DNA from: Moniliella sp. 'wahieum'
Taxonomy: Eukaryota
Length of the DNA stretch: 64,000 bases
Direction: 5' to 3'
Assembly: GCA_003971905.1 (NCBI GenBank)
Contig: RSEE01000049.1
Location: forward strand, 310,001-374,000
Both the position numbers and the translations under genes were made by a program. Under the pieces are notes generated by a model that saw only the letters and a program-made list of their open reading frames with translations, was not told where the DNA came from and did no database searches. Within the stretch, counting starts at the first letter, position 1, and each line of letters opens with the position of its first letter. Shown here in pieces: positions 2,512 through 61,868 of the stretch.

Positions 2512-2893
2512 TCTCTATACTGCAACCATATCATTGAAGGGGCTTAAGGCGGGACAAAAAACCGCTGCACCTAAACCGACGCCCGTTCATCCGGCGTGTG
2601 CTGCTTGTTTGTGCCAATACCGTTTAAGGAACCAGGGGAATCGCCAGGAGATCAGGTCGATTAGGACGCTCTGGTACCCGCAATCCGTTCCCATACCCAA
2701 GGAAGCGCGTGTGGATGCGGATGATCGATGAACGTGGTAGACATCTCCGAACGGTGAACCATCTTTATTGAGAGTCAGTAGTCAAATTCTTTCAGTGCCC
2801 AAGCATCTTGCCTGCTGTCTTGGTAGTATAGTATGCTCGCGTCGTCAAACCAAGGGGGGAAACGAACGGGCCGTGGGCCCGGTGGCCTCCTCG
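2512..2893 (+). mobile_element. Non-autonomous Helitron-like element, copy A (internally deleted relative to copy B)
   Basis: Homology to 30138-30881 begins exactly at A|TCTCTAT. The 3' end has a CGGGCC-GTG-GGCCCG hairpin (2867-2881) followed by CTCG|T. No TSD or TIR. Confidence 0.75.
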
Positions 2894-17893: not shown

Positions 17894-20676
17894 ATGGCAT
17901 CTCGCCCCCGCGCCCCCCGCACACCCCCGCCGCCCCCCGCGCCTGGGCCCGCCGGGACGCATCCACCGGCGCACGGCCATATGGTCCCTCCCAGGGACGC
18001 CCCCAAGGGCCTCCGGCACGCTCCCAAGGGCCCCGGCACGCCCCAAGGCCCCAGGCACGCCCCCAAGGGCCTCCGGCACGCTCCCAAGGCCCCAGGCACG
18101 CTCCCAAGGGCCCCAGGCACGCCCAAGGACCCCAAGGTCACCAAGGTCACCAAGGACGTCCCCATGTACATCGAAGCGGAAACCCAGGTGGACTCCGAAC
18201 CGGACACCCGGCCGCGCGTCCTGCCGCGCCTCCCCGCCGCCCCCCAACACGCCTGCCTGGCTCTGGGCACTCGTGGCTCCTTTCCATGATCTTCCCTCCC
18301 ACCTGCCTCCGTTCCTCTCCTCGCCACCCTCCTCGCCCCCTCCGCTGCCGCCCCCCCAATTCCTCTACCAGCCGCGGCAGCCTCAACAGTCATGCGTTTC
18401 GCTGGCTCCCACACCACAGCCACGCTCTTCGCCACTTGATCCGCACCCTTTCCGCCCAGTCTTCCCGTCCCGTCTATCCCTCCCCACAAGCTGAGGAGGC
18501 CAAAGAGATCAACTCGATTGCCGGCCGAAAGTTGGTCGTTTTCCAACTGGTTCGGCTGCTTGGGCTCGCCTCGCTGGCTGCTCACTTTGGCCAAGCAACC
18601 GACCGCATCTCTCCCGAGATGCGCAATGGGGTTCTCAACATCCTGTACGACTTTTGTGAAAGCTCTTCGCGCTCAATCCGTTTCCTCGGCTACCGCGCCC
18701 TCGTCGAGATTGCGTTTTCTGACCCCCTCGTGGTGCGGCGAAATGTGGATGTGTTGATCCAGCTGCTAGTGGTGCCGCACGAGGACGAGAAGCGGACGAT
18801 CAAAGCAGGATTGCACACCTTTCTTTCTTTCCAACCAGAGACGACACTGGGAATGCTGCTGGATCCCGAATCCCTTCAATCACCCAATATCCGCAACCCA
18901 ATCCTTTCCTTTCTCGTGGAAGCAGCCCAGCCGTTTCCAGATACGAAATTGTTGGACGGCATGCCCTCCACGGGGAGGGACGACTTCCCTACGCGCCTGT
19001 CCGTTGACTCTGAACTTCAGGCGCTCCTCGCCACTCGTCTTGCTGAGAACCTCGTCCCTCCCCCTCAAAAGGAGGAAGGGGGGGAAACGCTGGTGGAGTC
19101 ATTTTTTGCCACCCTTCCTGAGCAAAGGAAGGAGCTGGAGTCCATCTCCCACCTACTTTTCGGCCTTGGTGGAGACAGTGGGCTTACACTCCTCTGGAAC
19201 GAACAAGCTAACCCGTCTCGTGCTCGTGCGGCCAAAGATGCACTACTAGACTCGTTGTGCTTGCGGGGGCACAAAAACTAGCGGTAATGATGCATTGTTT
19301 GCGCCTCGTCCCGGACGACATGCGGGTCGGACCCGATTCGGGGAGGCAGAAGCAGTGTTGGAGGTGTGGAAGGACACACTTCCTCGTCCTGTCGACACTG
19401 AAAGCCGCACCCAAGTGGATTCGATGGACACGGATCTGCCCGACCGCCAAGGCGAGCAGATGGAGCGTGCCATCAAAAGGGTGCTCAAATATCTTCTCCA
19501 GGACGAACCTTTGCTCCGCTCCCGTTCGGCCCCCGAGGGGGGCAAAAAAGTGGCCAATGATCAAGTTCTATACGAGAGCTTTCGCATTGGATGTCTGGGG
19601 ACGAGGGAGAGGCAACATTGGGGCTCGTGTCAGCGGGCGTCAAGGTATGCTTGATGAGGCTGGCGGCGCTTGCGGCGTTGTCCCGTCGGAAGACTGCCAT
19701 TCGTCACACGACCATCGGGGCCTATGATTCCAACCTAGCCGAAGTGCTGTTCGAGGGACTGGCGAGCATCGCGATCCCTCTTGAGGAGTGGGGTCCCGGG
19801 CATACCTTTGCGCTCGAAGGAGCCGAAGCCGCTTTCTGGGGACTTGCCATGGCTTTGCCTTTAGTACGTTCCCTTCCTTTGCTCCTTGCCTGGGTACAAA
19901 GCTAATGTTGCGCATTGGATAGCGCCCTCAACGGTCGTTACCCAAGCAGTGGGTGACGGACAGCGCCGGGGCACAAGAGATCTGTCAACGATGGGCTGAA
20001 GTGGCTGTGCGGGGATCGGAGGTTACCCGTCAAGTGGCCAAATGGGGGGAAGTGAGAAGGCGTACCTTTCCATTCTGCTTCGGACGATTGAAGGGGTCAG
20101 TGCGCAGCTACTCCTTCCTGCGAATGAGCGCGTGGCACTCGATTTGCCCCCGGTTTGGATTGATGTATCGGCGCCCCTCTCCATTCCAAGTGCGCAGCTC
20201 CTCAATGATGCTGGACAGGCAAAACGCCGACGTTCCCCGCTCCTAGTGACGTCGCCGCCCCTAGTGACGCCCTCTGCTCCCGCAACGGTAGGGGGAGGCC
20301 TATGAGCATCCGTGGTGTGGCAGGGGGCACCAAGCGGGGACGCTCCGAGGAAAATGTCTGCCTTGTGAATGGGACCTTAACCCCCGTTGTATCCATCAAA
20401 GGCAGTGCTGGTCCCGCACCCCTCGTTCCCGTCGACCAGCCCCTGGACCAGCCCAGGCCTCTGGACCAAGGCACACCCTTCAACCAGGCCCCGCCCATCG
20501 CCGTTCGTCTGTCCCATTTCGCGCCCACGGTATCGTCGCATGCAGAGGCCGGATTCAGTTTCCCCCCTGCTTCGACTAGTGGTAGTTTGTTGGACCGCGT
20601 CGAGCCACGGAACCAGAATCTGATGCGGAGGATGGCCACGCACCCGCGTCTGCACAAGAAGCAACGAAACTACTAA
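17894..20676 (+). CDS. API5 (apoptosis inhibitor 5)-like HEAT/ARM protein with putative Pro/basic N-terminal repeat extension
   Basis: NGVLNILYDFCESSSRSIRFLGYRAL..VVRRNVDVLIQLL..EDEKRTIKAGL..PETTLGML parallels the API5 N-terminal motif (AINAQLDLCEDED..IR..ADILTQLL..D..E). The start is uncertain (17894 or ~18392). Frameshifted. Basic C-terminus ends at TAA 20676. Confidence 0.65.
17995..18155 (+). repeat. Imperfect ~21-bp tandem repeat (CCCAAGGGCCCCAGGCACGC[T/C])
   Basis: About 6-7 visible units, translating as RHAPKG(P/L) in the frame of ATG 17894. Confidence 0.8.
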
Positions 20677-24430: not shown

Positions 24431-26556
24431 TCACTGGTAGCTCTGTGAACGCGGCTGCGCATTTCCTTCAGTTAGTGCTCCTGTGGTCGTTTTCCCCTCC
24501 GTTATCTCTCCACGACCGACACCGCTCCCACTCGAAACTTCATTTAGCCTCGCGTTCGTGTTGATTAGCAGCTCCCTAGCTCTTGCAGTCAGTAGGGGCC
24601 ATCTGATTCTGGCCAGTTTGCAGGTCCCCTGCTTGATCTGTAGTGCACGCACTATAAGAACGATATCTGTTACAACAAAAGACCTCCTTGAGGGATAAAA
24701 TTGTAGGAAGCAGCAGGACAGAGATACACGTGATACAAAGAAGTGAAGAGTGAAGTCGCAAAGGCTTCCCCGACCAAAGGGTGACAGTATGCTGAGGAAA
24801 CCAAGGAAATAAATGGAGCTGAGGGTTGGTATGCTCTGTACACCCACGCCTCCAAGTAGGAGAGTGTGGGCAGACAAGGTCATGCCGAGGGTGGGTTGGA
24901 CATTAAGGTTCGGGCACAAGGGATGCTTGTGGACTGCTCCGTCCCGATGGCATCCCGCCTGAGCCACGAGCCAAGCACGGGCTTTTTGGACCCCATCCAT
25001 CCTTGAAGGTGGGAAGGAGTGACCGGGGAGGGAAGCGATGGGCCGTGCACGTTTGGCCGGCGGTTCTGGATCGGGATCTGAACCGTGTTTGGGCTCCGAA
25101 GCGAGCGTTTGGATCACGTGTGCCATCTCATCGGGTGCGATCAAGTCAAATGGTGAGTCACTGGCACGCGCAGTGCTAGGTGAAACGGGGTAGTTGGGCA
25201 GGGCAAAGCCCGGGTCCAAGTTGAATTCCTTGGCAAGCGACGGATCTTTCTTACCTACAGCGGGGTCGTCTTGTGGTGGTGCAAAAGCTGCAATAGAGTT
25301 TTTTTCAAGGTTAGTATATTATTGTTTTAGGAATGGAAAAAAAGTTTAGAGGGTGTATTGCGGAATGCTTACCTTGATCTGATCCGCGTCGCAACACCCC
25401 GCTTTGTACCATAACTTCTGACAAACGACGAATGCAGCCGACGAGCACTCTAAGCATTTGGAACATATCCCCAATATCGCGCACAGAGGCGATACCTCCT
25501 TCCTCGGCATTGAGTAGCTCGGGATGGGCTTGGATCGCCTGCATGCGTTCTTGCACCCGGACGAGCCAGGCAGCGTCAAATGAGTTTTGAGGAGGGATGT
25601 GGCCGAGGAGAAGGAGACACATGTATCCGCTGGTGGCAGTTTGGGACGAAGGCCATGCCTTGTCCTCTAGCTGGACATCTTCCGGAGAGTAGATCGGCAA
25701 GGGTAGCGCAAGAACTCGATTTGGAGTGTGCGGAAGATTCGGAAGAGGAGAGTTTGAATCGTCAATTCGACGGGCCGCGTCGTGGCTTCGATACGGTGGA
25801 AGAAGGTGCTCATATCATACCGCGGCATAGGTTCTGACGGTGCCAGCGTCGGATCTTGAACGGTATGCAGCACAGGGGAGCGCGGGGCGGACGATACAGG
25901 AGAAGGGCTGTCTTCTAGTGAGGCACGATTCATCATCTCCGATACGGATCCTATCCGTGAGCCCTTGGGGGAAGAAGGCTTGTGGTAGAGGGAAAAGGTG
26001 GAGACGGGAGGCAGTAAATGACGGTCGCCAATGCGGCGGGGCAACCTGTCAGAGGCAGGACGGGGTAAAGAAGAGCGACGCGACGGCGGGAGCGACGTGT
26101 TGGGTGTTGACGAAGGAGCCATGTCCATGGAGAAGGTGCTACCCCGCTTGCGGATCGGGCGTGGTCCGGTGGCAGTGGGGGGGACAGCATTGTAGGTGCT
26201 CCTCAGTGATGGCGGTGGGACAGGGCCCGACGGATTGCTGCCTACGTTTGAGGGAGGGTGGGCTGCGGACGCGGGGGCATTGGGCAGGTGGGGACAGGCG
26301 GTGTGACTGGGTGAGCCGCCCTGAGCAGTGTCGTGCAAGGAGTAAGCAGCTAGGCTGGGCGTGGAAAACTTGTCCGCCATGCGCTGCGGGAGGGGGGCAG
26401 GGGGGCTGGGGGGAAATATGCTGGATCGCACACATGAGGTGGCGGTCTGGTGTGAGGATGGTGGTGGTCGGGAGGGAAGGGGACAAGGGGTCTGGTGCGA
26501 GATGAAGGATACATATGCATTGAGGGGGGGAGGGTCATGTCATCGTCATTAGGCAT
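24431..26556 (-). CDS. Hypothetical protein (Pro/Ser-rich N-terminus, helical core, NLS-like PPAKRARP)
   Basis: Chain of overlapping minus-strand ORFs. A canonical intron at 25372-25288 (GTAAGC..ACTAAC..TGCAG) joins two of them in frame. No family recognised; the 3' end is uncertain. Confidence 0.55.
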
Positions 26557-26949
26557 GAAAAAGCTCGAAGAAGCATTAGGATCAGTATCATGTACTGGCT
26601 AGCCAACAGCTTCAGCCAGCGCCCACGGCCGTACGAACAGGCCATTTCTATAGGGCCGCGCGCGACCTACCGCACAGCGGCAGCATGTGCGGGCCGTCTA
26701 TTAGACATGGTGCATTATGTAGCGAAGACCTTGCCACGGCGGGCCATTCCGGGAAGACAGCCGGGAGGCACAGCTGGCCACATCGCGGGCGTCGCGCATA
26801 CGGACGGCAACCAGCGCTGCTTACGCGCTTACGCGCTACGCTCCCTGGGGGGGGCGCAGCCGTACCAGGCCGTACCCGTACGGCGCGGACCGGCGCGTAT
26901 CCCAGGAGGTGTCAGGGTGGGTTGATCGTGGGTGGACGAAAATATGAAT

Positions 26950-29900
26950 GGCCAATCGCCGTTGATCGATGATCATCGACCACGCGCACGTACTAGCCAT
27001 GTCCGCGGACCTGATGCCCACGGCCTCACAGCGCTGGAAGGCTTCTATCACAATTGGCACCACCTTGGTATCCAATTGTGGCACCAGCACTCAGCCATGG
27101 CTCAGCGGCCTCAGGGCCTCAGCGCCTCCCCTCCAATTCTGCCGGTATCCGCGATATCCCCTACAGGGTGGATATCATCTTCTCTGACGCTTGACGTCGA
27201 GAAGGGGTGGGCATATGTAGTCGCCGTTCGGGCAGCGACTAGTGACTAGCAACGCGTGACGAGCTAGTGATGCATGAGGGCGACTAGGTGACTCTGCAAG
27301 TGACCGGTGAGTGCCGGTGATCCGGCCGGTGACCCGGCGACCACGACGCCGATCATCGATCAGTCTGCAAGGATTAATGATCGTAATCCCTACCGACTAA
27401 TACACACGCTCAACTTCAACCAACGCTTAGCGCTTAGGCTAAGCGCTAAGCGCTAAAAATGAATTAATAATTAAATTTTTATTTTTATCTTCGTGATCAT
27501 CCATCATCCATCACCGATCGTGCTGGCGTACGCGTTGTTTGTGTACAGGTAGGTGTACAAGTGTACTTGTGTACCTGTGGGGGAAACCTCGATCACGGAA
27601 CCAGTATCACGTCCCCTCAGGCCTCAGGCCTCACCCGCCTGAGGCCTCGGACCAGGCACCGAGGCCTCATGAGATCTGAGATCTCCCTATTTGCTACTGT
27701 AGAGAGGAGGGTAAAAAAGGTGGGTCCCTGTCATGCAGGTCATGCAGCTCGTCAAATTCATTTCTACTTGGTCTCCTCGTCTACTCATAAAAAAATGTGG
27801 GAAACGCGTCTGGTCTGCCACTACTGCCACTGACGACGTAAGGCGCTCAGCGCTCACCAGTGAGTAGTGAGTACTCTCAGCGCGGCCAGCCCAGGATATC
27901 GGCGGTATGATTTTGCCTCTCCACTGGCGTGGAACGGTGGAACGGGTGGCAAAGGTGGCGAGCAGGCAGAGAGGAAGCCCCAGTAAACCGGGCCGTAAGC
28001 CCGGTGGTCCCCTAGTGCCGTATTCCTTTAAATTTGCACAAAACTCCCACACTGCACTTCTGTTGTGGTTTTAGACAAAGAAACGTTTTCAGCTCCCTCA
28101 CAGGCTAGTCTCTCTACTACCCTCCCAGCTCTCACATCTCCTTTTTCTCGTTCTTTACGCGGTCTCTAATATAGTATTCGTTTCCCTTCAAACGGGGCTT
28201 GCTGTTGACAACTTTTATTGAGGCCTTCTCGCACATTTTCCCTCTTCTTTGCCTTAAGTTGTCCGGCGGCTGTGTTGCTATCATAGTCCCGTGGGTCACT
28301 AGCTGCACTGTTGCACTCGTGTGCACTCTCTTCTCAATTTTCTCACATTCTCAGAGATGATCACATCTCTCCTCCTTCAGCTTCATGCTTCACGCGTCAC
28401 GCGCCAACACGGATCACTATATTGATCCTATCTATCCTATCTCCAATGCTCAGTGCGCTCAGTGACCAGTGCTCCTCAGTGCTCAGTGACTAGTGAGCAG
28501 TGCTCAGTACTCAGTAACTCAGTACTCACGCTCACGGTGCACAGACAAAACCATACATACGGTTCTAGTTCCTTTTCCCGAAAGACCTCTCTGAAGGTCC
28601 CAGCTTCACCTATCTTTATCTTTAATTACCATATGGCAGGACCCATCAAAACGTGCCAACAACCCTACTGCCCCCCGACCTATACGCACGAACGTAGCAG
28701 AGCCTATATGGAGAAAAGTGGAGAGTGCGGGGCAACCGATAACCGTTAACCGGTAGCCGGTAATTCGGGTAAGCACAATGCTATAATCGACAAAGGACCC
28801 TACTGTGTTGCATGTTATACCACCGTCCCAACAGGTAACAGTACTATAGTGTAGTCACTCGCCGTCACTAGTCACTGTCACTGTCATGTCCATGTCATTG
28901 GAATATCTTATGTGCTGAGCCTCAGCGCTGTGAGGCGTGAGGTCACGCCTAAGGGCGTGAGGTCACGCCTAAGGGCGTGAGGAGGCCTGAGCATGAGGCC
29001 AGGCAACCACGTTACGTTCACTGTTTACTATAGTCATTTATTCAGTAGATAGCGTGAAAAGGGCAGTGGACAACTGTTTGATGTGTTATCAATAACCAGT
29101 GGGACCGTTACTGATGGATGTTTTGCCTACTACTCAGGGGTAGATGACAGGCGATAGATGTATAGTGGCAGGGAGATAGGTTGATGGTGGGGAAGATAGA
29201 GCACGTAAAGCTTAAAGCCTTCTTCAGCTACAAAAGTATATAGACGTTCCATGCTATGTATCCATCCGGCTTGAGATCCTTCTGAGAGCTTGAAGCTTGA
29301 TATCCTTGAAGCTTGAAGCTCAAGCTTTTTGAGACTTGAGACTTGAGAGTCCATCGGAAGAAGCGAAAGAGCGTGTCATCCTGCCAATTAAATGATGTCA
29401 AGGCCCACGATGACTCGATGACAAGCATACGCCGGACTAACTGAGCCTGAGCGCACAAGTTTATATGTACAACGCGTCGGGTCATAGTGAACTTTTGTTG
29501 GATGTGTGGTAACAGCACGGTATATGTGGCAACTTATACTAGCGACGTCTTATTCACTCCCCTATGGAGACCTCAATGGATGCTGAGGCGCTGAGGGCGC
29601 TGAGGCTAGTAGTGAAGCAAAGATGGATAGGATAGTTGCGTAGGCGATCGATTGCGAGGGCGAAAGATGAGCGCTCAGGCTGAGCATTGGTAGTCGGAGG
29701 CACCTACATAGAGGAGAAAATTATTGGTCGCTGAGCTGAGGCGCTGAGGCTCAGCGCTCACCGGCACCGTGAGCGGCCACCAGTCTCTCTGCTCCCAAGT
29801 CACTGGCTCGGATACTTACGTGACGCGCTTGACGCGTGACGCGTATCCACGCGCTCGCCGCATCAAATGCCGCATTGGATCCCATGTCACAGTCGGCGTA

Positions 29901-30050
29901 GTCTCCGCGGAGTCCCGGGGGTTAATCACTCACTACTCAGCTAATCACTCTCGTCACTAGTCACGTACTAGTCACTACGCCACTTCGGTATAGTCACTAA
30001 TGACCAACGAGATCGATGAAAGACCAACAGAAAAGTGCTCCGCGAGAGCC
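26950..30050. repeat. Gene-free tract dense in TNA-centred 7-bp periodic palindromic micro-repeats
   Basis: e.g. TTA gcgc TTA..TAA gcgc TAA gcgc TAA (27427-27456), TCA ggcc TCA ggcc TCA (27617-27633), TGA agct TGA (about 29291-29316). Confidence 0.85.
27682..28015 (+). mobile_element. Non-autonomous Helitron-like element, copy D
   Basis: The 3' ~90 bp is homologous to 30770-30881 (GCGTGGAACGGTGGAACGG..). Hairpin ACCGGGC-CGTAA-GCCCGGT (27987-28005), then CTAG|T. The 5' end at A|TCTCCCTAT is tentative. Confidence 0.6.
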
Positions 30051-30137
30051 TGCTCGCTCAGGCCATTCCAGACCGGTTCCTTATAAAGACGGTGCTAAGA
30101 TGTTCCTGGTAACCGCAATACTATATCCAGTCGTCCA

Positions 30138-30881
30138 TCTCTCTATGCTAACCATATCATTGACAGAGCTTAAGGCTAGGACAAAGAAGCGCACAACGCC
30201 TAAACCGACCCGTTCATCTTGCGTATGCTGCTTGGTAGCGCCAACCCCGCTTAAGGAACCAGTAGGGGAATCGCCAGGAGATCAGGACCCTCTGGTACCC
30301 GCCATCCGTTCCCATACCCGAGGTAGCGCGTGTGGATACGGATGAACGTGGTAGGCATCCGAGCGAGAAACCATTTCCATTGAGAGTCAGTACTCAATAG
30401 TCAAAACCTGCCAGTGCACAAGCATCTTTCCCGCTGTCTTGGTGCCGTAGTATCCTCGCGTCGTCAAGACCAGGGGGAAAAACGGCTCTTGGGTGCGTCA
30501 AGTGCCCAGGACCTGCCGTCCATCCTCCCGAATCTGGTCCCGGTTCCGCTCGACGCACTTGCGCAAGTTGAGCGTGAGGCCTGGCGTGTCGTCTTCCAAA
30601 ATCTCCGCATGTCTTGTATAGGTACGGCATCACCAGGTGCCCCGGCGGCAGCTCCTTTTCCAACTTCTCCAGTGTTGGCCGCACCGCGAGATGAAGAAGA
30701 AAAAGGGGGCGAGGGGATCGCCCTGCGAACGCTATCTACCGATATAACGCCCCAGCGTGGAAGGGTTTCAGCGTGGAACGGTGGAACGGTGGACCGGTGG
30801 CACGGTGGTTACGGTTGCGACGCAGCACCAAGCTGGGGCGACGCCCCAGCTGACCGGGCCGTAGGCCCGATGGTCTCCTCG
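30138..30881 (+). mobile_element. Non-autonomous Helitron-like element, copy B (longest)
   Basis: A|TCTCTCTAT 5' end. About 340 bp co-linear with 2512-2860. Subterminal hairpins AGCTGGGGCG-A-CGCCCCAGCT (30831-30851) and CGGGCC-GTA-GGCCCG (30855-30869). End CTCG|T. Confidence 0.78.
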
Positions 30882-30882
30882 T

Positions 30883-31135
30883 GAGCTTTTAAGGCCGGGA
30901 CGAAGAAACGCTGCGCTTAAAACCGAGCCGCTCATCCGGCGTGTGTTGCTTGTTGGCGCCAAATCCGTTTAATAGAGGGAACTATTAGGAGAGTCGTCAC
31001 AGCAAATGAGGACCCTCTGGTGCCCCCCCAACCGTTCCCACACCCGAGGTAACAGCGCGTGTGGATACATATGAACATGGTAGACATCCGAGCAGTGGTG
31101 AACCACAGCTCCATTGAGACTCTGTATAGTCAAAG
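30883..31135 (+). mobile_element. Degenerate partial copy C of the same Helitron-like family, abutting copy B
   Basis: Co-linear with 30166-30410 (e.g. TCATCCGGCGTGTG, CCGTTCCCA.ACCCGAGGT, GCGCGTGTGGATAC, ATAGTCAAA). Lacks the first ~28 bp. Confidence 0.7.
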
Positions 31136-32240
31136 ACTGGTATAAAAATGAACATGGTCAGTCGTCCATTTACTGCTAATACCGGCTGTGTATAGTGTCA
31201 TTCCAGCATCTTCTTCAAATCGTGAGCTCCATGTGGTCTTCGATCCTGCTGCTGAGAGACGGGAATGGAAACACCCCGGGACGGATCACAACTGTGATTT
31301 TATGTCTGTGTTTTACCGGTTACCGGGGCTCCGAGGGCCGTTCTCGATCAACGAACACCAAGATCACCTCTCTAAGCCATACTGATAGACTTGGTCTTCT
31401 CAGATCTCATCCGAGGAATTGACCGCGCTGAGAGGCTGAGCGCTGCGCTGAGTGCGCTGAGTCCGGATTCGATCATGTGTTGTTCGATCGGGCCCCAGAC
31501 CAGTATGGCGCCCGACGCCATGATGCATGATCCCTGCCTCTTCTTTTCTCTGCTGGGCCTATAGTCCCACATCCTGTCTCTGAAAAACTGCCACCGCATC
31601 ACAGCTTTGCGATCCAACAGACACGCTGGCAGACGTAGGCCAATACTGTGCAGTGCCATAGAAACCTTTTGCTTTGTGCGATGTATATAGTGCTGACTGT
31701 GCACGGGTGAAGAGCGAAGCTCCATCTACTGCAGGAAGAGGCTGAGGGGCGGGACCAGATGAGTATATAGAAGGAGGCGGTGGGGTTTGCTTTCTTGAAA
31801 GTGCCGGATTGAAGCTGTACTAATGAGATGTGAGCGCGAGCTGTGTGGGTGGTTACACTTTATTTTGGCTGTGTGTAAACAAAACGTGGCTGGGCTCTCC
31901 GCCGAGCGGGTGTACTTTAGAGTCTCTCGGGCGCTGGCGAGCTTGATGAGCTTGATGGAACTGGTAAAATGAGAGGGATTGTGGGGTTTTTACATTAGGC
32001 CGAGGCTGAGTGCGGCGAAGGCTTAATTTCTGAGACCGGGAGGCGCTGGGGCAGGCACAGCGCCAGTCTGCGCCCGCTCGCATACCGATGCGCGCTGGCC
32101 AGTGGCCTCGTGCTGGCGATTTAACCACTCCACCATGGAAGGCCGGTGGGCTGCGAAAACTTTCTTGTCTCCACCCTGACCCCACTCTCTGCAACCACAT
32201 CATCGTCCATCATCCACCGCGCCCAGGGCTCCATCGCCTT

Positions 32241-44324: not shown

Positions 44325-46179
44325 TCTTTTTTGCGTCCTCCCAAATTTCTTGTTTACCACTCTTCTGCTTAAATAGAGCCGTCTTCGGGCGTCCCCCGGC
44401 CTTTGAGTCAACGATACTCAGCATTTCATTGTCCACCATTCATAACACTAGCCATGAGTAAGCATACATAATAGTCACGTTCAACATTGGTTTTCTCTCA
44501 GTCTGTTGTGGTGACGACGGCACGCTTGCAGTGTGCTATATATGCCAACCGCCAAACCAAAAACTGCCAAGATGATGCCAAAAGATGATGAAAACAGAGT
44601 CTCATCGCTATGTCTGACACACCGGTTGGGAAAGTGAGAAATATACATAACACATATAACTGATGGAGCAATAATGGAGGGAATAGGCTGCTGAAGCGAG
44701 CCGTCTTGAACCACACGCAGTACTCTCTGATTTTTGTCTTTTCTGACCTCTCTCGGTTAGTCAAGACAGATGGATTGTCGAAGATCGTTCCGTCTGAATC
44801 GCTATAACCACACGCAGCTTGCATGATGCTCAGAAACTTCTTTCACGGTCTATAATGGTCGAAATATGGGCACAGCCTTTTGTTCCCTCCGTCGAACAAC
44901 AAAAACATCCCACAAGCCTTCTCTTTTCTTTCTTGTGGGCACACAACTACATGCTATTCGCACACAGATGGCACCATGGACACACTACAATACTACCGTG
45001 GCACGACTTGATGGCTCATCGCTCATCGGCTGCACGATTCGAGCTCCTTCATCAACAGTGCTTCGGTAACTATAGTAACTCTTCACATAATTTTGGATGT
45101 CGTGCGGTGGAAAATGAATAATGGTGCCACCATGGAACTAAGAATTGAACGCAGGACTGAACGCAGGGCTGCTAATGAACGTAAAACTGTGGATGAAGTT
45201 TGCACCAATGGAAACTGAGTGCACTAGGTTCACTATGAGGCCGGGAGGATGGAGAGTATAACACTCATAGATATATTTTGCTCATAAGAACTGTGTGAAA
45301 GAATCGGCTGAGGGCAGTGCACATGCAGGATGATCGATGATCTAACTGAGCGCTTTAACAATTTTATACTCGCAAATCCTCATTCACGCCGTGGATACAG
45401 ATTGTGGTGTGACGAGGAGACCACCAACAACGAAAGAGAACAGATAGAACAGAGGGATAAAGGGAAGTAGCTTGTGCGGCAGCGCGTGGCATCGAGAATG
45501 GCCCCGTGTTTGAGACCACGGTGCAAAAGAACAAGTCGTCCGTTCGCCATGCAGAGAGAGAGTACGGTGGTATGGTCCCCGTTAGCGGATAAGATATTCC
45601 AGCGATGTGGCCGATATAGCCATGGAAGTGTTGCCACATCATGCATCACTCCTCACAATCTCCTAAAGGAAAGGCCGATGGCCAGAAATGGGATTCATCA
45701 GTTCACTATCAAGTATCCGAGTACCGACGATGACCACTCATTCAGTACAGGCAACTCCTCATGCTCTTAGTCGTCTTTCTACTCCCTGCCTAGTCCACCA
45801 GCTCCCGTCCTCAGCTCTTCGTTCCTCAGTCCTCCCAGTCCGTGTGTGTCTTCCCCGTGCCACGTCGAAGCCCAGCTCAGTTCACCCGCTTGTGATACTG
45901 CCTACAGCCACGCCCCCAGTCCCAGTCAGTTCCAGTTTAGCAGCGCAGGTCCTCCGCTGCCTCATCCCTTTCCTGTACCACGAATGCTTCAGACGCGCTA
46001 CTGCGCCCAAGCCGGTGCTACGCAGCTTTGTCACATGCACCGCATCTGCACAGCCGCCTCTTTCTGCTATACGCCGAGAGGCCTTTTCTAGTCCCTAGCT
46101 CCGCTCGGATCCACAAATCAGCTCAAGCGCATAACTACCGTGAGTCGACCTTCCGTAATTAGGGGATTGAACCCCGTAC

Positions 46180-49100
46180 AACTATTTCCTGGGTGAGCGG
46201 TGAGCGCTGAGCCTCAGCCCCCTGGCGGGGGGCCCGCCCGTGACATTTTACCCGATTCACCCAGTGATGGAGACAGTTGGATGGGTGGAAGGTAGACACA
46301 CGGGACACGTCAAAACGCACCACGGATGGTGAGTTGTGTAGACGTATACTTGGTGGCGCGAGGGGCCGAGGTTGTGATGAATGCTGGGTGCTGGGGGATG
46401 GTTGGTGGTAGTGCTAAGCATGTTACATGATGTCTTTCATTATGCTACGTTGCTCCTGCCAACCGTGACGCGCTGCATATCCTCGGCTAAAGCCAACGCC
46501 GATGAGCAAGCGGCGCAGGGAAGCCCTGACCGTGATCGGTGGCCGGACTGGGTACTGGTTTGTGATGTGCGACATGTGACCGGTGATCTCAGGCAGAGAA
46601 CTGTGAGGTAGTGAGACAAGGCTCACTCAGGTCCAACGTCCGGCTCGAGCAGGTACCTACCCTCGGACCAACCCTCAGGCCCTGAGACTCCTCAGGCCTG
46701 AGGCCCGATGCATGATGTCTGATGCACCTGATGATACAAATGTAAACATCCTGTGCCTGAGTACCTGAATACACCCTATCGAGTGGGGCAAAAGGATCTC
46801 TGTGCTGCTTTGCTCCGTCGCTCAGTATACTGAACTCAGTATGCCGGTCCTTCGGCGCATTTTCGGGATTTCCAGGTTCAAGTGAAGCTTAGGGTTATTA
46901 ATGTGGACAGAAAGTGCTAGCGAGTCACCCGGTCGACCCGAACACCCCGGTCACCGGTCACCGCGCCCGAACAGCCAAAGTGACGTGTGACGTGTGACGT
47001 GTGATCGATTATCGATTCTCGAGATTATCACCGGCACCAATCATCTGAACGATGTCGATGTTCCTTTCGTAATAGGTAGCCTCTCCGGCCTCAGACTGGG
47101 GCCTCAGGCCCCTCAGGCTACCTCAGAGTGAGCTTCAGGCTGAAGCTTGAGTAGCGCTGAACGCCTGAGCCTAAGCCAGCTGGCTAGCTCAAGCTCAAGG
47201 GTCAAAAGCTCTCAGGTCAGAGCCAGCTTCAAGCTCTCAGATCTCGCCAGCTTCAAGCCATCAGATCTCGCCAGCTTCAAGCGCCGCTGTCACGGAAATC
47301 ATTAATCAAGCTCAAGCTCAAGTGGCCTCTTCCTGAGATGTCACATGTCACATAGGAAGCGGCCCCTTCCGGAGACGTCACATGCTTACTTCCGGTGCTG
47401 TGGAACAGGCCTATACAGTTCAAGTGCGGCACTAGAGTGACGAGGTATGTGACCATGTGACGCAGGTGACTTTAGTGACTCGTGCAACGAGCACCTACCC
47501 AATACCGTCCTCATTTTCAGGAGCGTCACATAACTCCTTACCGGGTTACATATTCATGTCACATGTCACCATGTCACCGGTCCCGCCGGCTTTCCGACAA
47601 AAAAAACCACTCTCTGGTCTAAGATCTGATGCAGATTATCAACAGTTTCCAGATCTCAGAGGCCTGTACATACACGTTATATGGCCATCTATACCGTGAA
47701 AAACGTCCAAAGTTCGTAAGTGACTAGTAGTGACATCAAGAGGATGATCTGGTGTCGCATCTACTCTCTTGCCCGCTCTGCGCGCACCAAGCTCCGAGAG
47801 ATGTCGTATCTCAGCCTGAAAGCGCTAAAGTTCACCTGCTCAGCCACTCAGCTACGTCCGGTTCGCTCATCAGTGCTACTTCCGTCAGCTTATTGCTAAC
47901 AGAATGATTTGGTGCAGGGTACACACGGGTGTCTAGACAGTTGTGGGTGCGAAGCGTGAAGCTGTGAGGCTGTAGAGCTTCAAGTGAAGGCACATGTTGC
48001 AGCATAGAGTGAGTATACGGACGAGATGATCACTACACGGACTCCGTGGACGTATAGCGTATACGCCTGAGGTTTTTACATTATCCATCAAGAGAAAATG
48101 ACACATAAGATGTTAACGTGATCCACGGTGTGTGGACTTTCATCCCATTGGGGGACCTGGCAAGGGGATGGTCTAATTCTGCTCAACGTTCGATCGGCGA
48201 ATATACTTTCAGCCCCGATGGAGAGCTTCATAAGAAGTGCCCTAGTGCTCTATCCAGGAACATTATGACGAGTCCCCCACAAACGATAGCCAAAGCTCGT
48301 TCATGTTGCCGTTACGTATTACTTGTTACACTCAATGAAAAAAAGGTGATGAAAGAGGATCATCCTCCCGAGGTTGTGTGGAGACGGTTACATGTTACAT
48401 GTAACCGATTATACGACCGCTGTGTTGATGGCACCATGGGAGAGTGTGACATGTCAGTCTCAGTAAGTATATCCCTCATCCGAGTCTCACCAAAGTATCG
48501 GGGATACTACAGTTACAGCTGTGCGCGCCCCTGAGGCTCAGGGCGCTCAGGCCTCAGGCCTGATGGGCCTGATCGATGTCTGATGATCGATGAACCTTGA
48601 GCGGCTGAGCGCTGAGCCTCAGCTACACTCGGCCGTTGCACTGATGCGTGGCACAATACTCTCAAAGGATTAAGGACTGGAGGATGCAATAATATATGCG
48701 GAAAAATCGGAAGAACCCCCTAAATCAAAGGTTCATGCTCACATGCGTCATGAAGGGAAGCCTAGCGAAGCTCGAAGCTTGAAGCCCCCTGAGGCCCTCA
48801 CCTGAGGCCTGGCCTGAGTTACGAAGCTTAAGGCCTGAGGCTGGAAGCTTGAAGCTTAAAGTGACTGAATATAGGCCAGGTGATACATGATGCATGACGT
48901 CTTGTGGGGGCCCGAGGCAGTGGAAAAGATCTGTGGGGCTGAGGCGCTGCGTCGCTTATGAGGCTCTGGATGAGCGCTCAGCTCAGGCTGAGCCCTGAAG
49001 GTGAGGGGCCTGCGCTCAGACCCAGGGATCAAGCACTGTGTACTGATGCGTTGAAGCTCTCTCTGAGAGATCTGAGATCTGTGAGATCTGTGAGATCTGT

Positions 49101-49900
49101 GAGATCTGAGATCTGAGATCTGAGAGCTAATACTGTATAAGGCCAGGCTCAGACCCTCAGGCCCCGGCCTCAGGTGAGGTCTCAGTACCTCAGTACTCAA
49201 GTTCCCAATATCAATACAACTGTAAACAGTACGTACTCAGGTACCCACGGCAGCCACTAAGTACTAATGCCACTAGTTACTAGTTCCTGGTGCTCCGCGC
49301 CATGGCGAAGTCACTTCGATCACTTGTGATCAATGATCAGCTTGTTTTTGCTGGATGGTGCTTTTCATTAACGTTTAACGTTTACTAGTTACTGGTTTTA
49401 CCGGTTACTTGAAGAAGGGGAAATATCAATGAGGCCTGAGGCCCGAGGCCGCCCGAGGCCGCCTGAGGCCTGAGGGCTTGAGCCTGATAAGGCACCATAT
49501 TTCAGACCTCAGAGGGTGTATAGTACCCTAAGGGCCTCAGTATCAGCCATTCCATACGCATATAATTAATAATTCCTTCAAGCTTCATCTGCTTCAGTTG
49601 TCTGAGGAGCGTGTGCGGTGTGGCCTGCTCGTCAAATCTATACAGCACTATGACACCTTCGGCCGTTTGAGGGGTCTTGGTCTTGACGCATGAAAAGCTT
49701 GAAGCTTGATTAACTTGATCATGATCAACAGCGATCTGTATATCCATCCGGCCCAGTATTAATAGTTGCCATCACAAACGCTACAGGTGGCGGCGTTCAA
49801 CTTGACATGCAAGACCGTCCAATCCCGATAGTTTCGCTCCAGGGCCTCAGGACCTGGCGTGATAGTTCCATATCTGTATCTGTCGGTCAAGTGACATGTG
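46180..49900. repeat. Second gene-free tract dense in TNA-centred 7/9-bp periodic palindromic micro-repeats
   Basis: e.g. TGA cgtg TGA cgtg TGA cgtg TGA tcga TTA tcga (46981-47015), TTA catg TTA catg TAA (48388-48404), TTA acgt TTA acgt TTA ctag TTA (49368-49391). Confidence 0.85.
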
Positions 49901-50066
49901 TTCATCGTGCAGTCTTTGAAGCGGGACGGACGGACCCCATTCGCAGCATATATAAGTAATACCCCTCACACTAAGAAGTGTCCCTGGCTAGAAGCTGCCT
50001 CCTCACAGCAACCACGACCACCCAAAGAGTGTACCCTCCTTTCCATCCTTCTTGGAAGGTTCCTCT

Positions 50067-54061: not shown

Positions 54062-54286
54062 GCTCCATCCGCCATCCCGTGGCGCACGGCACGAAGGTAG
54101 GGGTGGGGGGGGGGGGGGGGGTGGGGGTGGGGGGGGGGGTAGGGTGGTGGAGCGGCCCCGGCAGACAAGCACGGCCGTCGCCCGTCGCTCCGGCTGGAAA
54201 TTACGTCAGGCGCCACGCGGGCGGCTCTGGATGTTGAGTCCGGCCGAGCACTCACGCCGCCAGACGGCTCGCCGCCTACCACTGCC

Positions 54287-55705
54287 ATGAACGCCACACC
54301 GGCGCTTGCGCCGGCGTTGACGCACGAGTCGGCACCCCTCCCACCGGCAGCCGCACCGCCGCCATTGGCTCCCTTACCGCCTCCTTCCTCGAGCGCCCAA
54401 CGGCCAAGCAGCGCCTCTACCCGCCTCCTCCACAGCACCGACAACCGACTTCCAGCCCTTCTGTCAGCACCTGACCCGCGCCGAATGCGATGCCACCCGT
54501 CGCGCAGGAGGGGGCGGGATCCTCTGGTCGCATCCTGCGCCAAAATTCACTTTGTGCCCGACCCCATGCCACAGACCGACCCATCGTTGGGCACTGCTCT
54601 TACCTCTCTACCTGCCACCGGAGGAAAACCTGCCGCTACCTCCACTTTCGCATTGAGCGGCCCCCAGATCCTTCGGCGTCGGGTTGCTCCTGTGTTTCAA
54701 TGGGAGGCACCCTACCCACCTGATTCCTTCCGTTCTCAGTACTCGAGCGTTCTTCGCCCGCGTGAAGCGCTGACCCAGTCCGGGCTGACGGTGGCTGCTC
54801 CCCTGCCCCACGCCTGCGCACACCGAAACCGATACCATCTCGATTGATGTCCCCGAAGAATTGGAGGCGCTGACACGGGCCACCCCGCCCGCTCAATGGA
54901 TCAATTGCGATGTGCGGGACTTTGAACTGGGCCGCGTGCTGGGCGAGGGACTGTGGGACGTTGTGATGCTCGACCCGCCGTGGGACATCCACATGAGTTT
55001 GCCGTATGGCGTCCTATCTGATGCCCAGCTGCTCGACCTACAGCTAGGCCAGTTACAAAAACCCGGGGGGTTGCTCTTCATTTGGGTTACAGGCCGGGCG
55101 ATGGACATTGCACGGGATTGCCTGGCTGGTTGGGGGTATGCCCGGATCGACGAGATTGTCGGATCAAGACAGGCCACACTCAGCGCTGGTTCGCACCGGA
55201 CGCACGGGGCATTGGATCAACCATTCCAAGGAACACTGTTTGGTCGCCATCAAGCTGGGGGAGGATACCAAAACCCCAGAAGACCAAGCCGACGAGGCGG
55301 ACAACGGCCTGAATGCAACACCCAATTCGGGCCGGCCGGAGCTGTGCGGATGTGGTTCAGCTGGGCAGAGCCACACGTCCACTCTACCGCCGTGCCGGGG
55401 GGACGGCCACGACCGGCACTGCCGCCGGGTACGCTGGGGGGAAGTGGTGCCGTCGTGGGCCGCTGCGTGGGATGAGTGCGGATGCGCTGGTGTCCGAGGT
55501 GAGGGATACGTCGCGCAAGCCCGACGAGCTGTACGGGATGATTGAGCGGCTGGCGCCGGGCGGGCGCAAGCTGGAGCTGTTTGGCCGGCGGCACAATCTG
55601 CGCCCGGGGTGGCTGACGCTGGGCAACCAGATCCGCTCGACGCACGTGCTCGACCCGGACTTGGCGCGGCGGCTGCGGCGTGCGCAGATGGAGGGGGGGG
55701 TGTAG
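54287..55705 (+). CDS. IME4: mRNA m6A methyltransferase catalytic subunit (MT-A70 family, METTL3/Ime4)
   Basis: CCCH-finger remnant (C.KIHF..TDPSLGHCSYLSTCHR.KTCRYLHF). PPAQWINCDVR, catalytic DPPW (DPPWDIHMSLPYG), FIWVTGRAM, RTGRTGHWINHSKEHCLV, TSRKPDELYGMIERLAPGGRKLELFGR.HN.RPGWLTLGNQ. Confidence 0.95.
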
Positions 55706-55961
55706 TTGCTGAATTGATTCACTTGTCCCTGTGGGGGGCGGCCTGTGCGAGCGTGGGACGGATGGACAGGTTCAATAGCATTAGTTCAACGTTGCATCAA
55801 TGTTCAGCGTTTGGGTGTTGTAGCGTTTCTTGATCCGTCGATGCGGCGGCCGCAGTCCGGCGTCGTCGTCGAATTGCCGCCTGCCTTGCACCGCCCCCCC
55901 CGCCACCATCCTCCATCCGCCGGCCGCCGACCCCGCTCTCCCAGGCGGTGGACACTTGCGC

Positions 55962-58900
55962 ATGCTCCCCCGCCGGCCGCGCCCCGACGCCTCGGCGGTC
56001 CCCCGCGACGCCGCCATGGCTGCCCTCTCGCCCGAGCAGCTCGATGTCCGCGTCGGCCTGCTGCCCAACCTCGTCCGCCCGACCACCACCTGGGCCGCCG
56101 GCATCCCCCCGCTCCTGGCGCCTCGGCGCCCCTCAGTGCCGCCCAGCCCGACGTGCGCGTCGGCTTCCTGCCGAGCTACCCTTCCCCCACCCCCGCCCCC
56201 CCCCCTCCCTCCGCCCTCCCCGCTCCCACTCCCGCTCCCTCCGCCCCCCGTCCGCGCCGCAAGAAGAAGACCCAGCGCGCGGTGAGCCCGCCCCTCTCCC
56301 CCTCGCTGTCCCCAGCATCGACGTCACTCCTTCGTCGGGACCGCCGGACTGCCTCCCTCCGAACAGCACCGGACCGAACGCGCGATCGACGGTCTCCTCT
56401 GCCCTCCAATCCCGGTCCCTCTGCCCTCACCCGCCTGACAACCTCCAGGCCCGCTCGCGGCGGGCTAAAAAAGAGGCTCGTGCCAAACAAGATCGTGCTC
56501 GCCGCCGCTGCCGCAGCCAATGGAGAACCCCCTCCCCCTTCCTCCCACAGTTACCACGCCACAGCCGCCCTGGGATCGTCGGCTATGGCTCCGTCTCAAT
56601 CCATGCCGTCGCTCTCGATCCAGGGCGCGGCTGGGCCCTTGGGCCCCATCTCCGGTTGGGGGAGGGTATACCCCTGTCCCTGGACAACACATCCTCCACG
56701 CTGTCGGCTCCCCCCTGGCCATGGCTCAAGGACCCGCACTCTCCATGAGGAGGACCATATCGGACAGCCAAGGGGACACAGACTTGCTCTCGCCTCCTCG
56801 TGCCCCTTCTCCATCAGGGGCAGCGGTTCTGCCAGCCCCTCACACCAGCGTCGCTCCCCGTCCCCTCTTCCGAGGAGGACCAATTTGGCCATCCCCACGC
56901 AAGACACTCGGCCTACCTCTCCGGCCCGCACCAGCCCCGCACCACGCAACACCAATCCATCTGGACTGGGCGGGTCAATGCTCCTGTGGCCCGCCGCCCC
57001 CAACTGGCCCAGAGCAGTAGCGCATCAGGGGGAGATTCGTATTGGCCCACACGCCACACCTTGCCCACCAGCCCAACGCAGCGTATGTTGTCCAACCTGC
57101 CCATACCTTTGGCGCCCCCCGCACCCGCAAGCGTCGTGATCGTCCTTCGGATCGTGCCGAGGGCCCGTCCCAGCCACGCCCGGCCAGACGGGAAAGAACT
57201 GCCGCACCTCGTCCAAGGGCGCAAACCACCTCTGCTCTTCAGTCCGAACGGGATTTGGATACGCATCGGCCTACCCGGCAGAGGGTGGAGCAGCCTCCCT
57301 CCGATCCTCCGCGTCCCAACAAGAAACGATCCCTCCGGGCGCACAGAAGCTTCCCTGGTTCCGTACACCCCAATCCGGATAGCCATGATGAATGGTCCAT
57401 GTTCGAAGAGCAGCTGCATCGCATGGTCCAAGCAGAAGCTCGAGCGGCTCAAGAGGCCGGAAGGGAAAATCTTTCTTCCTCAACGGCGGCTCCGGTCTAT
57501 TCTAATGACGCCCCGCCACCGTGGACAGCACGCAGTCCGCCTCCTCCCTTTGTTTCGGATAGTGAAGGGACCGAATCGGACACTTCCTCCGCGTCGAGGG
57601 GCAACGATTCTGACGTCTCCCTCTCTCGCCTGCCTCCGGATCGAAGACGATGGGAAGCAGACCGCCGTGCTGGGCTTACATTGAGGAACGGATTCGAAAT
57701 GAGATGGCAAGACAAGAAGTGGACTCGGACATTGCGGTGGACATTGAGCAGATAATTCGGCTGAGCAAACCGACTCTCAGCCTGAACCACCTGCTCCCTG
57801 CCATGGCTCCCGAGGCGGCAGAGGCCCATGCCGAGTTGCCTCCTACCGCTCTTCGTTTGGAAGGGGAACCCGTCTTGGCCCATCCCTCTCGAAGGTTCCG
57901 CTTACGACAGTCCAGTCGATCTTCACCCCTCCACTGGCGAGACAACCCATCTGCCTGCAGACAGCACTCCCATTTCTACGTACTTCCCCCCGAGCCAGCC
58001 GTTACGGTCGCGCGTCAACGACCTGCTTCGGCCCAAGCACCACGTCGCCCCGTCAGCACCGGTCCAATGCTCGTCTGTCCTACAACCCTGGGGATGCAGC
58101 GTCGGCCGCGATGCGGCGGGCCGCCTTGTGGGGTGGCTCACCCCGTCCCATGTCGAGCCAGGGACTTCCTTCTCTCGAGCTCGCCCGGGCCCCGCCTGCC
58201 CGCTCACCAGAAGAATGCGTCGGCCAAGGACGTAGTGCCTCAGTCTGGCTCGACTGATCTCGAGTCGGGATCAGAAAGCGATGAACTTGTCTCGGCCGAG
58301 GAAGAGTTGGTTCGGAAAGTGATCGCCTTCCTGGGGGAGGACTCGGACTCGGATGCTCAATGGGAAGAGGAGATGGCTGCACTTGAACGGATGCGGGCGC
58401 GGGAACGTGAGTCGCTCCAAAATGCAGCAGAGAGGTACCTGGCCGTGCCGAAGCGAGCACAGACGAGTCGAGTGACGACGAACCTGTTCCTTCCCCGAGC
58501 AAGGCGGGGATGCAGAGGTGCGTCTCCGGCGCCTTCGCATGGCTGCAGCCGCTGAAGCCCGTGCCAATCGGGCACGTAGGCCCCAGGAGCCGCATCCAGA
58601 TTGGAATGTGGAGGTTCCGCGAGCGCCTGCACGCCTGTCGGGTCCTCCAGACGCATCTTCGCCTCCCTCATCGACTAGTTCGAGTTCGAGTTCGAGCGAA
58701 AATGAAGCAACAGTGATTCCGACTCGCCAACTTCCTCCCCGCGCGCAGAAGGATGGGACAAGCGTTGGTTGCGCCGCCGCTCCCCGAGCGGGCTGCTCAG
58801 AACGAGGCAGAGCGGTCTTCGGAGCAATCCAGTACCCGGGTTCCGCTGTACAGATGGGATTGCTTTCCCGTCCTCCCCCCGAACCGATGAAACGGGACGG

Positions 58901-61461: not shown

Positions 61462-61868
61462 CTTGCTCCCGTCTTCTGTTCGCTTACTGTCTTGTTCGTT
61501 TATCCGTGATGTCGATGACTGAGTATTGAGCATTGAGCATTGAGCATTGATTATCTACTAGCGTCATTCCTATTTTCTCCTGTTGCTTGCTCCTATTGCT
61601 CCTACCTCCTGTTCGTTCCTCCTCATGGCACGAGGGCACAGGCACTGGCACTCCGATCCAGTACCGAGTACCCGTGGTGCATGTGCATGTGGTGCCCCTG
61701 CCTATGCGTGTGCCCCTGCCTATGATGGCATGGCGTGCCACCCAGTATACACATTTCTTTGTCGTCCTACCCTTGCTGCCATTCCCATTCGTCTCTCTTT
61801 CTCCTGTCGTTGTTGCATCCTCTTTAGGGGCGGGAAGGAACAAGGTCTCCATAGCAAATGTCTGCGTG

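Follow-up and report, generated by a model that had tools for sequence, protein, structure and literature searches.

Several cut-and-paste transposases, those of hAT, Transib, RAG and MULE elements among them, form hairpins on the DNA that flanks the element; host enzymes open these hairpins and end joining leaves a footprint (PMC5499845), and palindromic footprints made of P nucleotides have been described in fungi (PMC5873905). Here we analyze a stretch of 64,000 nt of Moniliella sp. 'wahieum' (assembly GCA_003971905.1, contig RSEE01000049.1, positions 310,001 to 374,000 of the forward strand), referred to below as the window and numbered from its first letter, which carries many short scars that follow a common rule: a 7-bp target with TNA at its centre is duplicated, entirely or in part, together with two palindromic nucleotides that are the reverse complement of a flanking dinucleotide. 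We compare these scars with the footprints of the known systems and consider which kind of agent may have left them.

Among the closest described systems, hAT elements leave deletions and palindromic P nucleotides after the formation of flank hairpins (PMC5499845, PMC5873905, PMC3499496), the footprints of Ac/Ds having at their centre a base complementary to the one that adjoins the element (PMC5873905), and their targets have T and A placed symmetrically, for instance nnnTAnnn for TcBuster (PMC3499496). Transib and RAG combine a hairpin with a target site duplication (TSD) of 5 bp (bioRxiv 10.1101/2023.08.20.553239, PMC5499845). MULEs, which are present in fungi, form a flank hairpin of 43+43 nt in vitro, and precise events make up more than 90% of Muta1 excisions in yeast (PMC5499845). 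PIF/Harbinger elements have canonical TSDs of 3 bp, and two families with a TSD of 7 bp were described in December 2025, namely hAT7 (Puccinia, Melampsora), reported from Pucciniomycotina, and Kyakuja (Laccaria), reported from Agaricomycotina (PMC12730594). Finally, an origin as transposon footprints has been suggested for the "10-bp repeats" found in Ustilago maydis (Laurie et al. 2012, cited in PMC4081816).

A palindromic scar rule centred on TNA

A first-pass annotation of the window had compared two copies of a dispersed repeat and explained three indels between them by one rule, a duplication of NNTNANN plus two palindromic nucleotides. As each of the three can also be read as a tandem duplication, we put the question to the whole window. 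For the 16 trinucleotide classes of the form b1-N-b3 we counted the occurrences of the trinucleotide followed by four bases and by the same trinucleotide, and the share of them in which the four bases were palindromic. TNA was the only enriched class: the arrangement TNA, 4-nt palindrome, TNA was found at 76 sites compared to 2.9 in the simulations, whereas the remaining 15 classes stayed at background (3-15 observed, 2-8 simulated). For the 72 sites with two TNAs, the outer dinucleotide was identical to the adjacent half of the palindrome on the left side only in 23, on the right side only in 21 and on both sides in 11, a match expected by chance in 1/16 per side; thus in 55 of the 72 the dinucleotide of the flank recurs in the spacer as its reverse complement, as had been claimed.

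A typical site reads xy-TNA-y'x'xy-TNA-zw, or its mirror image xy-TNA-zww'z'-TNA-zw; that is, a direct repeat of 5 bases whose spacer is the reverse complement of the first two bases of the repeat, set in unrelated surroundings, and such a scar does not represent a tandem copy of sequence that was already there. We then searched both strands for xyTNA-[k]-y'x'-xyTNA, with k bases between the first TNA and the palindromic pair, and obtained 78 matches for k=0, 11 for k=1 and 20 for k=2 (simulated values of 0.33, 0.27 and 0.30, respectively), compared to 1, 4, 5 and 9 matches for k=3, 4, 5 and 6, the simulated value being about 0.3 for each k. Counted over k=0 to 2, the full pattern was present 109 times in 71 loci when about 0.9 were expected, so the proposed rule held well beyond the three initial cases.

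The length of the target could be read from the k bases that are kept, as these were identical to the bases after the second copy in 11/11 matches for k=1 and 13/20 for k=2 (chance 1/4 and 1/16, respectively), and never for k of at least 3. The left copy therefore retains 5, 6 or 7 bases of xyTNAzw and not 8, which agrees with a target of 7 bp of the form NNTNANN; none of the four matches for k=4 had the shape expected from the retention of both overhangs. The arm of the added palindrome was 2 nt, or 3 nt if the A of TNA is counted, two possibilities that are indistinguishable, and never 4 nt or more.

A single event was recognized in 49 of the 71 loci, 33 of them of +7, 6 of +8 and 10 of +9 (manual count from the listing). 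In the reconstructed targets (n=49), positions 1 and 7 were complementary in 11 and positions 2 and 6 in 12, where 25% is expected by chance; the targets were not palindromic, so the palindrome is produced by the event, and a preference for palindromic targets was ruled out as its source. As for the central base, 27 of these targets had G, 15 had C, 6 had A and 1 had T. The two central bases differed from each other at 16 of the sites with two TNAs and a palindrome between them, and 9 of the 16 were flips to the complement, giving perfect palindromes of 10 nt (manual count), a result that is expected from longer inverted copies derived from hairpins. A single complemented base at the junction, the signature of Ac/Ds, was present at 7 sites (0.17 simulated); as single mismatches at the junction involved the complement in 7 cases and another base in 5, hAT-type junctions of this class were set aside as a weak hint only.

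Excess of short duplications

Analysis with Tandem Repeats Finder indicated that short arrays with periods of 7, 8 and 9 were abundant in the intergenic parts of the window. Perfect duplications (at least two copies) were compared to 50 simulations based on order-2 Markov chains fitted to each 2-kb block, and the numbers observed were 61 for period 6 (simulated mean 17), 52 for period 7 (5.0), 12 for period 8 (1.2), 24 for period 9 (0.58) and 1 for period 10 (0.12); 9 of the 24 duplications of period 9 came from one unrelated TTGCTTTGC array at 61.9-62.3 kb. The distinct units were then examined for a rotation that, on either strand, gives x y T N A (k bases) y' x'. This was the case for 17/34 units of period 7, 5/11 of period 8 and 7/16 of period 9, while for random k-mers of the window the corresponding values were 3.1%, 4.9% and 6.0%.

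Perfect 7-bp duplications that are not palindromic and have TNA at the centre were also in excess (8, compared to 0.30 simulated); among the two-copy events with a non-palindromic unit containing TNA, 4/5 were in NNTNANN phase, about 1.1 being expected (manual count).

Three indels in a Helitron-like repeat

The three indels belong to a repeat that resembles a short non-autonomous Helitron. Copy A (2512..2893, + strand) starts at A/TC and has at its end a GGGCC-GTG-GGCCC hairpin with ..CTCG/T after it (the slash marks the boundary), and copy B (30140..30484, + strand) is 77% identical to it, has the same A/TC start and lacks the 3' hairpin. Repeat finding and a BLAST search of the window against itself provided two more members, a 5'-truncated copy C (30889..31134, + strand), which we used to polarise the indels, and a fragment D that corresponds to the 3' end of the repeat (27929-28017); beyond this A/B/C family and its one 3'-end fragment, no dispersed repeats offering further pairs of empty and filled sites were found in the window. 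Identity was 75% between B and C and 72% between A and C, and the tree of the three copies was not rooted.

In the pairwise alignment of A and B the gaps at the three sites were +9, +7 and +7, so the positions and sequences given for them in the first-pass annotation were confirmed. The +9 scar of A (2650..2665, + strand) reads GATCAGG-TC-GATTAGG, whereas B has a single GATCAGG at 30280-30286; here the entire 7-bp target is retained and followed by two palindromic nucleotides, the second copy having one C>T. The +7 scar of A (2720..2733, + strand) is GATGA-TC-GATGAAC, compared to a single GATGAAC at 30341-30347 in B, and its left copy has lost two nucleotides and gained two palindromic ones. 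The third scar is of +7 and belongs to B (30385..30398, + strand; AGTCA-GTAC-TCAAT, or AGTCAGT-AC-TCAAT), with A carrying the short allele AGTCAGT at 2773-2779; it is of the mirror, or right-hand, type and has one G>A.

Copy C is short at both sites where A is long (AATGAGG at 31005-31011 for the +9 site and TATGAAC at 31070-31076 for the first +7 site). As neither B nor C has the two long alleles of A, these alleles are derived if C is the outgroup, a position that C probably holds in a tree that is itself unrooted; they would then be insertions, and the opposite order, with ancestral long alleles lost by slippage, finds no match in copy C. Polarity is less clean at the third site, where C is +2 (TA) relative to A. 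Read as plain tandem duplications, the first +7 scar would be GATGAAC twice with one substitution and the +9 scar GATCAGGAC twice with two; the proposed rule spares one substitution in each of these two cases and none in the third. From the three cases alone, chance is not exceeded.

The 14-nt scar GATGATCGATGAAC was found in identical form at 2720-2733 and 48582-48595, two unrelated places with different flanks; this may be either the coincidence of a common target or a preference for GATGAAC. Regarding the repeat itself, its three 3' ends (that of A, the one preceding C at 30852-30884 and that of D) have in common a hairpin GGGCC-GTR-GGCCC followed by ..CTCG/T or ..CTAG/T, and C is joined head-on to the 3' end of another copy, in a tandem or nested arrangement. 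Arrays of the 8-mer GTGGAACG, which has no TNA, lie at 27929-27958 and 30773-30808, each immediately upstream of a 3' hairpin end of the Helitron-like element; they belong to this element as a subterminal repeat and fall outside the scar rule. No open reading frame (ORF) for a Helitron Rep/helicase was found in the window by Pfam in 283 of the 342 ORFs of at least 90 aa and in 20 long ORFs.

Distribution of the scars and structure of the arrays

The 71 loci are clustered. One hot spot (26000..32000) contains 26 of them (9, 12 and 5 in its three 2-kb bins) and another (46000..50000) contains 21 (8 and 13 in two 2-kb bins), with lesser groups at 0-4 kb and 62-64 kb and none in 50-62 kb. These clusters have few genes and a reduced G+C content, and copies B, C and D of the Helitron-like repeat are located there as well.

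Clean representatives of the longer classes are a +9 scar at 31447..31462 (+ strand), GCTGA GT GC GCTGA GT, and a +8 scar at 47564..47576 (+ strand), TGTCA C CA TGTCA followed by C. At 45014..45028 (+ strand; GCTCATC GCTCATC) a 7-mer that is not palindromic is perfectly duplicated in NNTNANN phase, and similar cases are found at 24742, 27859 and 46192. Arrays with TNA are made of the palindromic 7-mer that a scar creates, in line with the proposal that scars regenerate targets and give rise to arrays, and many of them end in xyTNA followed by unrelated bases, as those at 27438-27456, 27615-27633 and 464-481; the array at 27615..27633 (+ strand), for example, consists of CCTCAGG CCTCAGG CCTCA and then CC. 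Such an ending is what the model proposed below predicts from renewed hits on the palindromic 7-mer.

More complex structures were also observed. At 49062..49125, four 9-mers TGAGATCTG are mixed with 3.7 copies of the 7-mer TGAGATC, an array that would correspond to repeated +9 and +7 events at one target. At 27424..27456 two opposed arrays, CGCTTAG x2 and then GCTAAGC x2.7, meet in a 17-nt palindrome, and the central base switches to its complement from one array to the other (an inverted duplication). A perfect repeat of 20 bp in 2.5 copies (GGCGTGAGGTCACGCCTAAG) lies at 28934-28982, within the first hot spot; each unit has an inverted pair, GCGTGA..TCACGC, around GG, and the repeat may be a compound or inverted scar.

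A proposed origin of the scars

We consider it probable, with some reserve, that the scars are the excision footprints of a cut-and-paste DNA transposon, or of a nuclease derived from one. The rule, its specificity for TNA, the limit of 7 bp, the derived long alleles (with C as the outgroup) and the clustering of the loci are read from the sequence, whereas we infer a transposon, hairpins, and host steps of opening and joining; for these steps we draw on the established behaviour of transposases that form flank hairpins and on the repair that follows (PMC5499845, PMC5873905, PMC3499496).

According to this proposal, insertion of the element would duplicate a 7-bp target xyTNAzw, whose third base is T and fifth base A, mostly with G or C at the centre. 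On excision both flanks would be closed as hairpins, with the tip exactly at the junction between flank and element, and a host nuclease would nick them 2 nt past the tip, so that each would carry a self-complementary 3' overhang of 4 nt (zww'z' for the left flank, y'x'xy for the right one). An opening 2 nt from the tip is the one favoured by nucleases of the Artemis type. End joining would then keep one overhang entire and trim the other: trimmed wholly, the product is of +7 (xyTNA-y'x'xy-TNAzw, or the mirror xyTNA-zww'z'-TNAzw), trimmed by 3 it is of +8, and trimmed by 2 it is of +9. If both palindromic halves were trimmed a perfect 7-bp duplication would result, and a nick farther from the tip would give inverted copies. 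After an event of +7, the first 7-mer, xyTNAy'x', would be a perfect palindrome with TNA at its centre, and new hits on it would add identical units, hence the arrays.

Several observations bear on these steps. The left-hand and right-hand forms of +7 were about equally frequent (23 and 21), and the match to one flank only is what is predicted when one overhang is kept, while a plain tandem duplication would match both sides. The palindrome y'x'xy abuts an intact copy, as it would next to a junction-exact flank hairpin of the kind proposed here, and the even palindromes together with the two intact copies of the +9 class would require a hairpin located exactly at the junction. More tentatively, and as a possibility that we regard as rather less likely than its contrary, the agent may belong to a transposon lineage so far undescribed in the Ustilaginomycotina, or be a nuclease derived from one, that combines junction-exact hairpins like those of RAG/Transib with a 7-bp NNTSANN duplication and is locally so active that both the new tandem repeats of 7-9 bp and the growth of intergenic DNA stem mainly from its scars.

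If the proposal is true, about 70 sites in 64 kb log past transposon visits with base-level regularity, and the scars alone give the length of the target (7 bp), its motif (T as third and A as fifth base), the position of the hairpin (at the junction) and the offset of the host opening (2 nt). It would also represent a route from transposon scars to short tandem repeats, in which an ordinary site is turned into a palindromic one that can be targeted again. The combination of TNA, a 4-nt palindrome and TNA is a computable signature by which the element could be traced and its activity dated, and which could test whether unexplained short repeats of other smut genomes have this same origin.

Alternative explanations and the search for the element

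Several results weigh against an origin by transposon excision. None of 2353 pairs of 7-bp NNTNANN duplications tested in the window, 40-15000 bp apart, enclosed an element with convincing inverted ends, and searches that allowed one mismatch in the duplication or were aimed at YARNG or CA..TG ends gave no convincing element either; no transposase domain was found by Pfam in the ORFs of the window scanned for Helitron proteins. All sites are thus "empty" scars and no filled site backs the insertion step. With about 70 loci in 64 kb and as many as 13 in 2 kb, the density is very high and would require that many cycles of insertion and excision became fixed. Ac/Ds-type hAT elements typically leave odd palindromes, from a nick with an offset of 1 nt, whereas here 76 even palindromes stand against 7 single-complement junctions; no known superfamily joins a 7-bp TSD with junction-exact hairpins, and no described family fits all of the features. 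As for the rule, the palindrome fits neither flank in 17 of the 72 sites with two TNAs, 2 of the 9 9-mer units that contain TNA break it, a phase test of all 39 two-copy events of period 7 was not significant (11 in phase, 7.4 expected), and the third indel of the Helitron-like repeat is explained equally well as a tandem duplication of TAGTCAA with one substitution. As the agent was not found in the window, the cut-and-paste element of the first-pass annotation stays an inference; a window of only 64 kb means, on the other hand, that the absence of the element here says little. One candidate (55248-60644, flanked by CATCAAG and with 10/12 end matches) was judged to be a chance match, as it starts between two exons of an MT-A70 gene and lies in GC-rich, low-complexity DNA.

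One alternative would be replication slippage, in which tandem duplication is aided by near-palindromic 7-mers prone to form hairpins and is followed by point substitutions, with no nuclease involved. The three indels can indeed be written as tandem duplications with 1, 2 and 1 substitutions, and existing arrays of self-complementary units can expand in this manner. Slippage, however, copies DNA that already exists and cannot make a reverse-complement dinucleotide, while 44/72 sites show a match to a single flank; the reconstructed targets are not palindromic, and slippage provides no reason for TNA (76 compared to 2.9, with the other classes at background) or for a stop at 9 bp. We therefore regard it as very unlikely, and the tests for TNA, one-sided flanks, the limit on k and the targets, carried out on the whole window, rule out plain tandem duplication as the general cause. 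PIF/Harbinger elements duplicate 3 bp, TWA or TNA, a core similar to the one found here, so an element of this type could have left two copies of TNA separated by a filler of 4 nt. This would account for the 17/72 palindromes unrelated to either flank, such as TTA-ACGT-TTA-ACGT-TTA at 49368. A filler derived from the ends of an element would nevertheless be constant, whereas half of the palindrome equals the flanking dinucleotide in 55/72; in the +8 and +9 classes the repeated part of the target amounts to 6 or 7 bases, and G or C occupies the centre in most targets (42/49). This origin seems to us the most improbable of those considered.

A sequence-specific nuclease, such as a domesticated transposase or another enzyme, could in principle act in the absence of any mobile element and make a 7-nt staggered break centred on TNA, to be followed by hairpin formation or fold-back synthesis and by rejoining; identical scars would arise, with no transposon inserted at any stage. 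We know of no nuclease that both duplicates 7 bp and adds two palindromic bases. That scars alone are seen, with neither a filled site nor a transposase in the window, would agree with such an enzyme, and the high local density and the repeated hits per site would be easier to obtain with it than by many cycles of insertion and excision. The window is however too small for the absence of an element to count, and a 7-bp direct duplication with palindromic bases exactly at the junction is what integration and a later excision through hairpins are known to yield (PMC5499845, PMC5873905); we hold this explanation to be unlikely, although less so than the two previous ones. Footprints of transposon excision thus remain our preferred explanation, and in its essentials the interpretation of the first-pass annotation is supported.

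Host genes and unrelated repeats

The closest named proteins to the Nop58 encoded at 35.9-37.4 kb are from Exobasidium, Ceraceosorus and Tilletia (72-71% identity), by which the host is a fungus of the Ustilaginomycotina. Further genes recognized were those for an S10 carboxypeptidase, a PL14 lyase, MT-A70, a PQ-loop protein, an HMG box protein, EB1 and cytochrome b5. The MT-A70 family gene (N6-adenine methyltransferase-like; 54789-55702) is in two ORF pieces, and the gap between them holds the left end of the chance match to terminal inverted repeats mentioned above. Rfam gave 0 matches on the full window.

Three arrays of the window do not follow the TNA rule, namely a coding repeat of 54 bp (1.3-1.8 kb), one of 21/60 bp (18 kb) and one of the TTGCT type (61.9-62.4 kb), so that the claim on the origin of arrays is limited to those with TNA. 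The first (1267-1809; about 8-10 units in tandem) lies within an ORF and encodes a repeat protein rich in Gly, Ser and Tyr, with no Pfam match. The second (17990-18157) is GC-rich, with repeats of 21, 41 and 60 bp (CCCAGGCACGC..), in an ORF of 521 aa with a weak match to API5. The third (61863-62415) is a long array of the TTGCT/TTTGC type with periods of 5, 9 and 10, the source of the unrelated period-9 duplications noted above. Long runs of G or C (up to about 40 nt) are present at 54100-54144, 56179-56249 and 61205-61237, and the GC-rich stretch of 54-62 kb is without TNA scars.

Comparison with known transposon systems

Full-text searches of the literature gave no account of a 7-bp scar rule with TNA at its centre. 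The agent had been called undescribed, and this is to be qualified: a duplication of 7 bp, although unusual, is already known from hAT7 and Kyakuja (PMC12730594), while none of the families fits the whole set of features. In the same subphylum, the U. maydis repeats are also many, short and intergenic and have been read as relics of past transposons, with a unit of 10 bp and not 7; PMC4081816, as far as consulted, does not mention a rule of TNA plus palindrome for them.

With hAT elements the likeness concerns the target, as nnTnAnn would be a 7-bp analogue of their symmetric T/A targets. The canonical hAT TSD is of 8 bp, and the 7-bp scar unit fits hAT7 only, which has a duplication of the same length and is also from Basidiomycota, though reported from Pucciniomycotina and not from Ustilaginomycotina; neither a hAT transposase (DDE plus dimerisation domain), among the scanned ORFs, nor TSD-flanked YARNG ends were found in the window. 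Kyakuja, of the KDZ group, likewise has a 7-bp TSD in basidiomycetes (PMC12730594). Its termini are CA..TG without inverted repeats, and the window contained no convincing CA..TG element with a 7-bp duplication and no KDZ transposase. The TSD of MULEs is 8-10 bp, compared to the limit of 7 bp found here (a single match for period 10), and no MULE domain was present in the scanned ORFs of the window; the hairpin of MULE/Muta1 is apparently junction-exact, with a duplication of 8-9 bp in Muta1. PIF/Harbinger elements differ in that they duplicate 3 bp, whereas here the flanking dinucleotides are duplicated along with TNA in 55/72 sites.

RAG and Transib form the hairpin at the border between flank and element, open it a few nt off the tip to give even P nucleotides and join the ends by non-homologous end joining, as we propose for these scars, and the even palindromes thus fit junction-exact hairpins of the RAG/Transib type better than footprints of Ac/Ds-type hAT elements. 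Their TSD is of 5 bp compared to 7 here, the +8 and +9 classes repeating 6-7 bases of the target (11/11 and 13/20), and no RAG1/Transib-like ORF was found in the window; to our knowledge RAG/Transib elements have not been reported from these fungi. Taken together, the scars are best filed under flank-hairpin cut-and-paste transposition, where they stand nearest to hAT7 by their target and to RAG/Transib by the geometry of the footprint.

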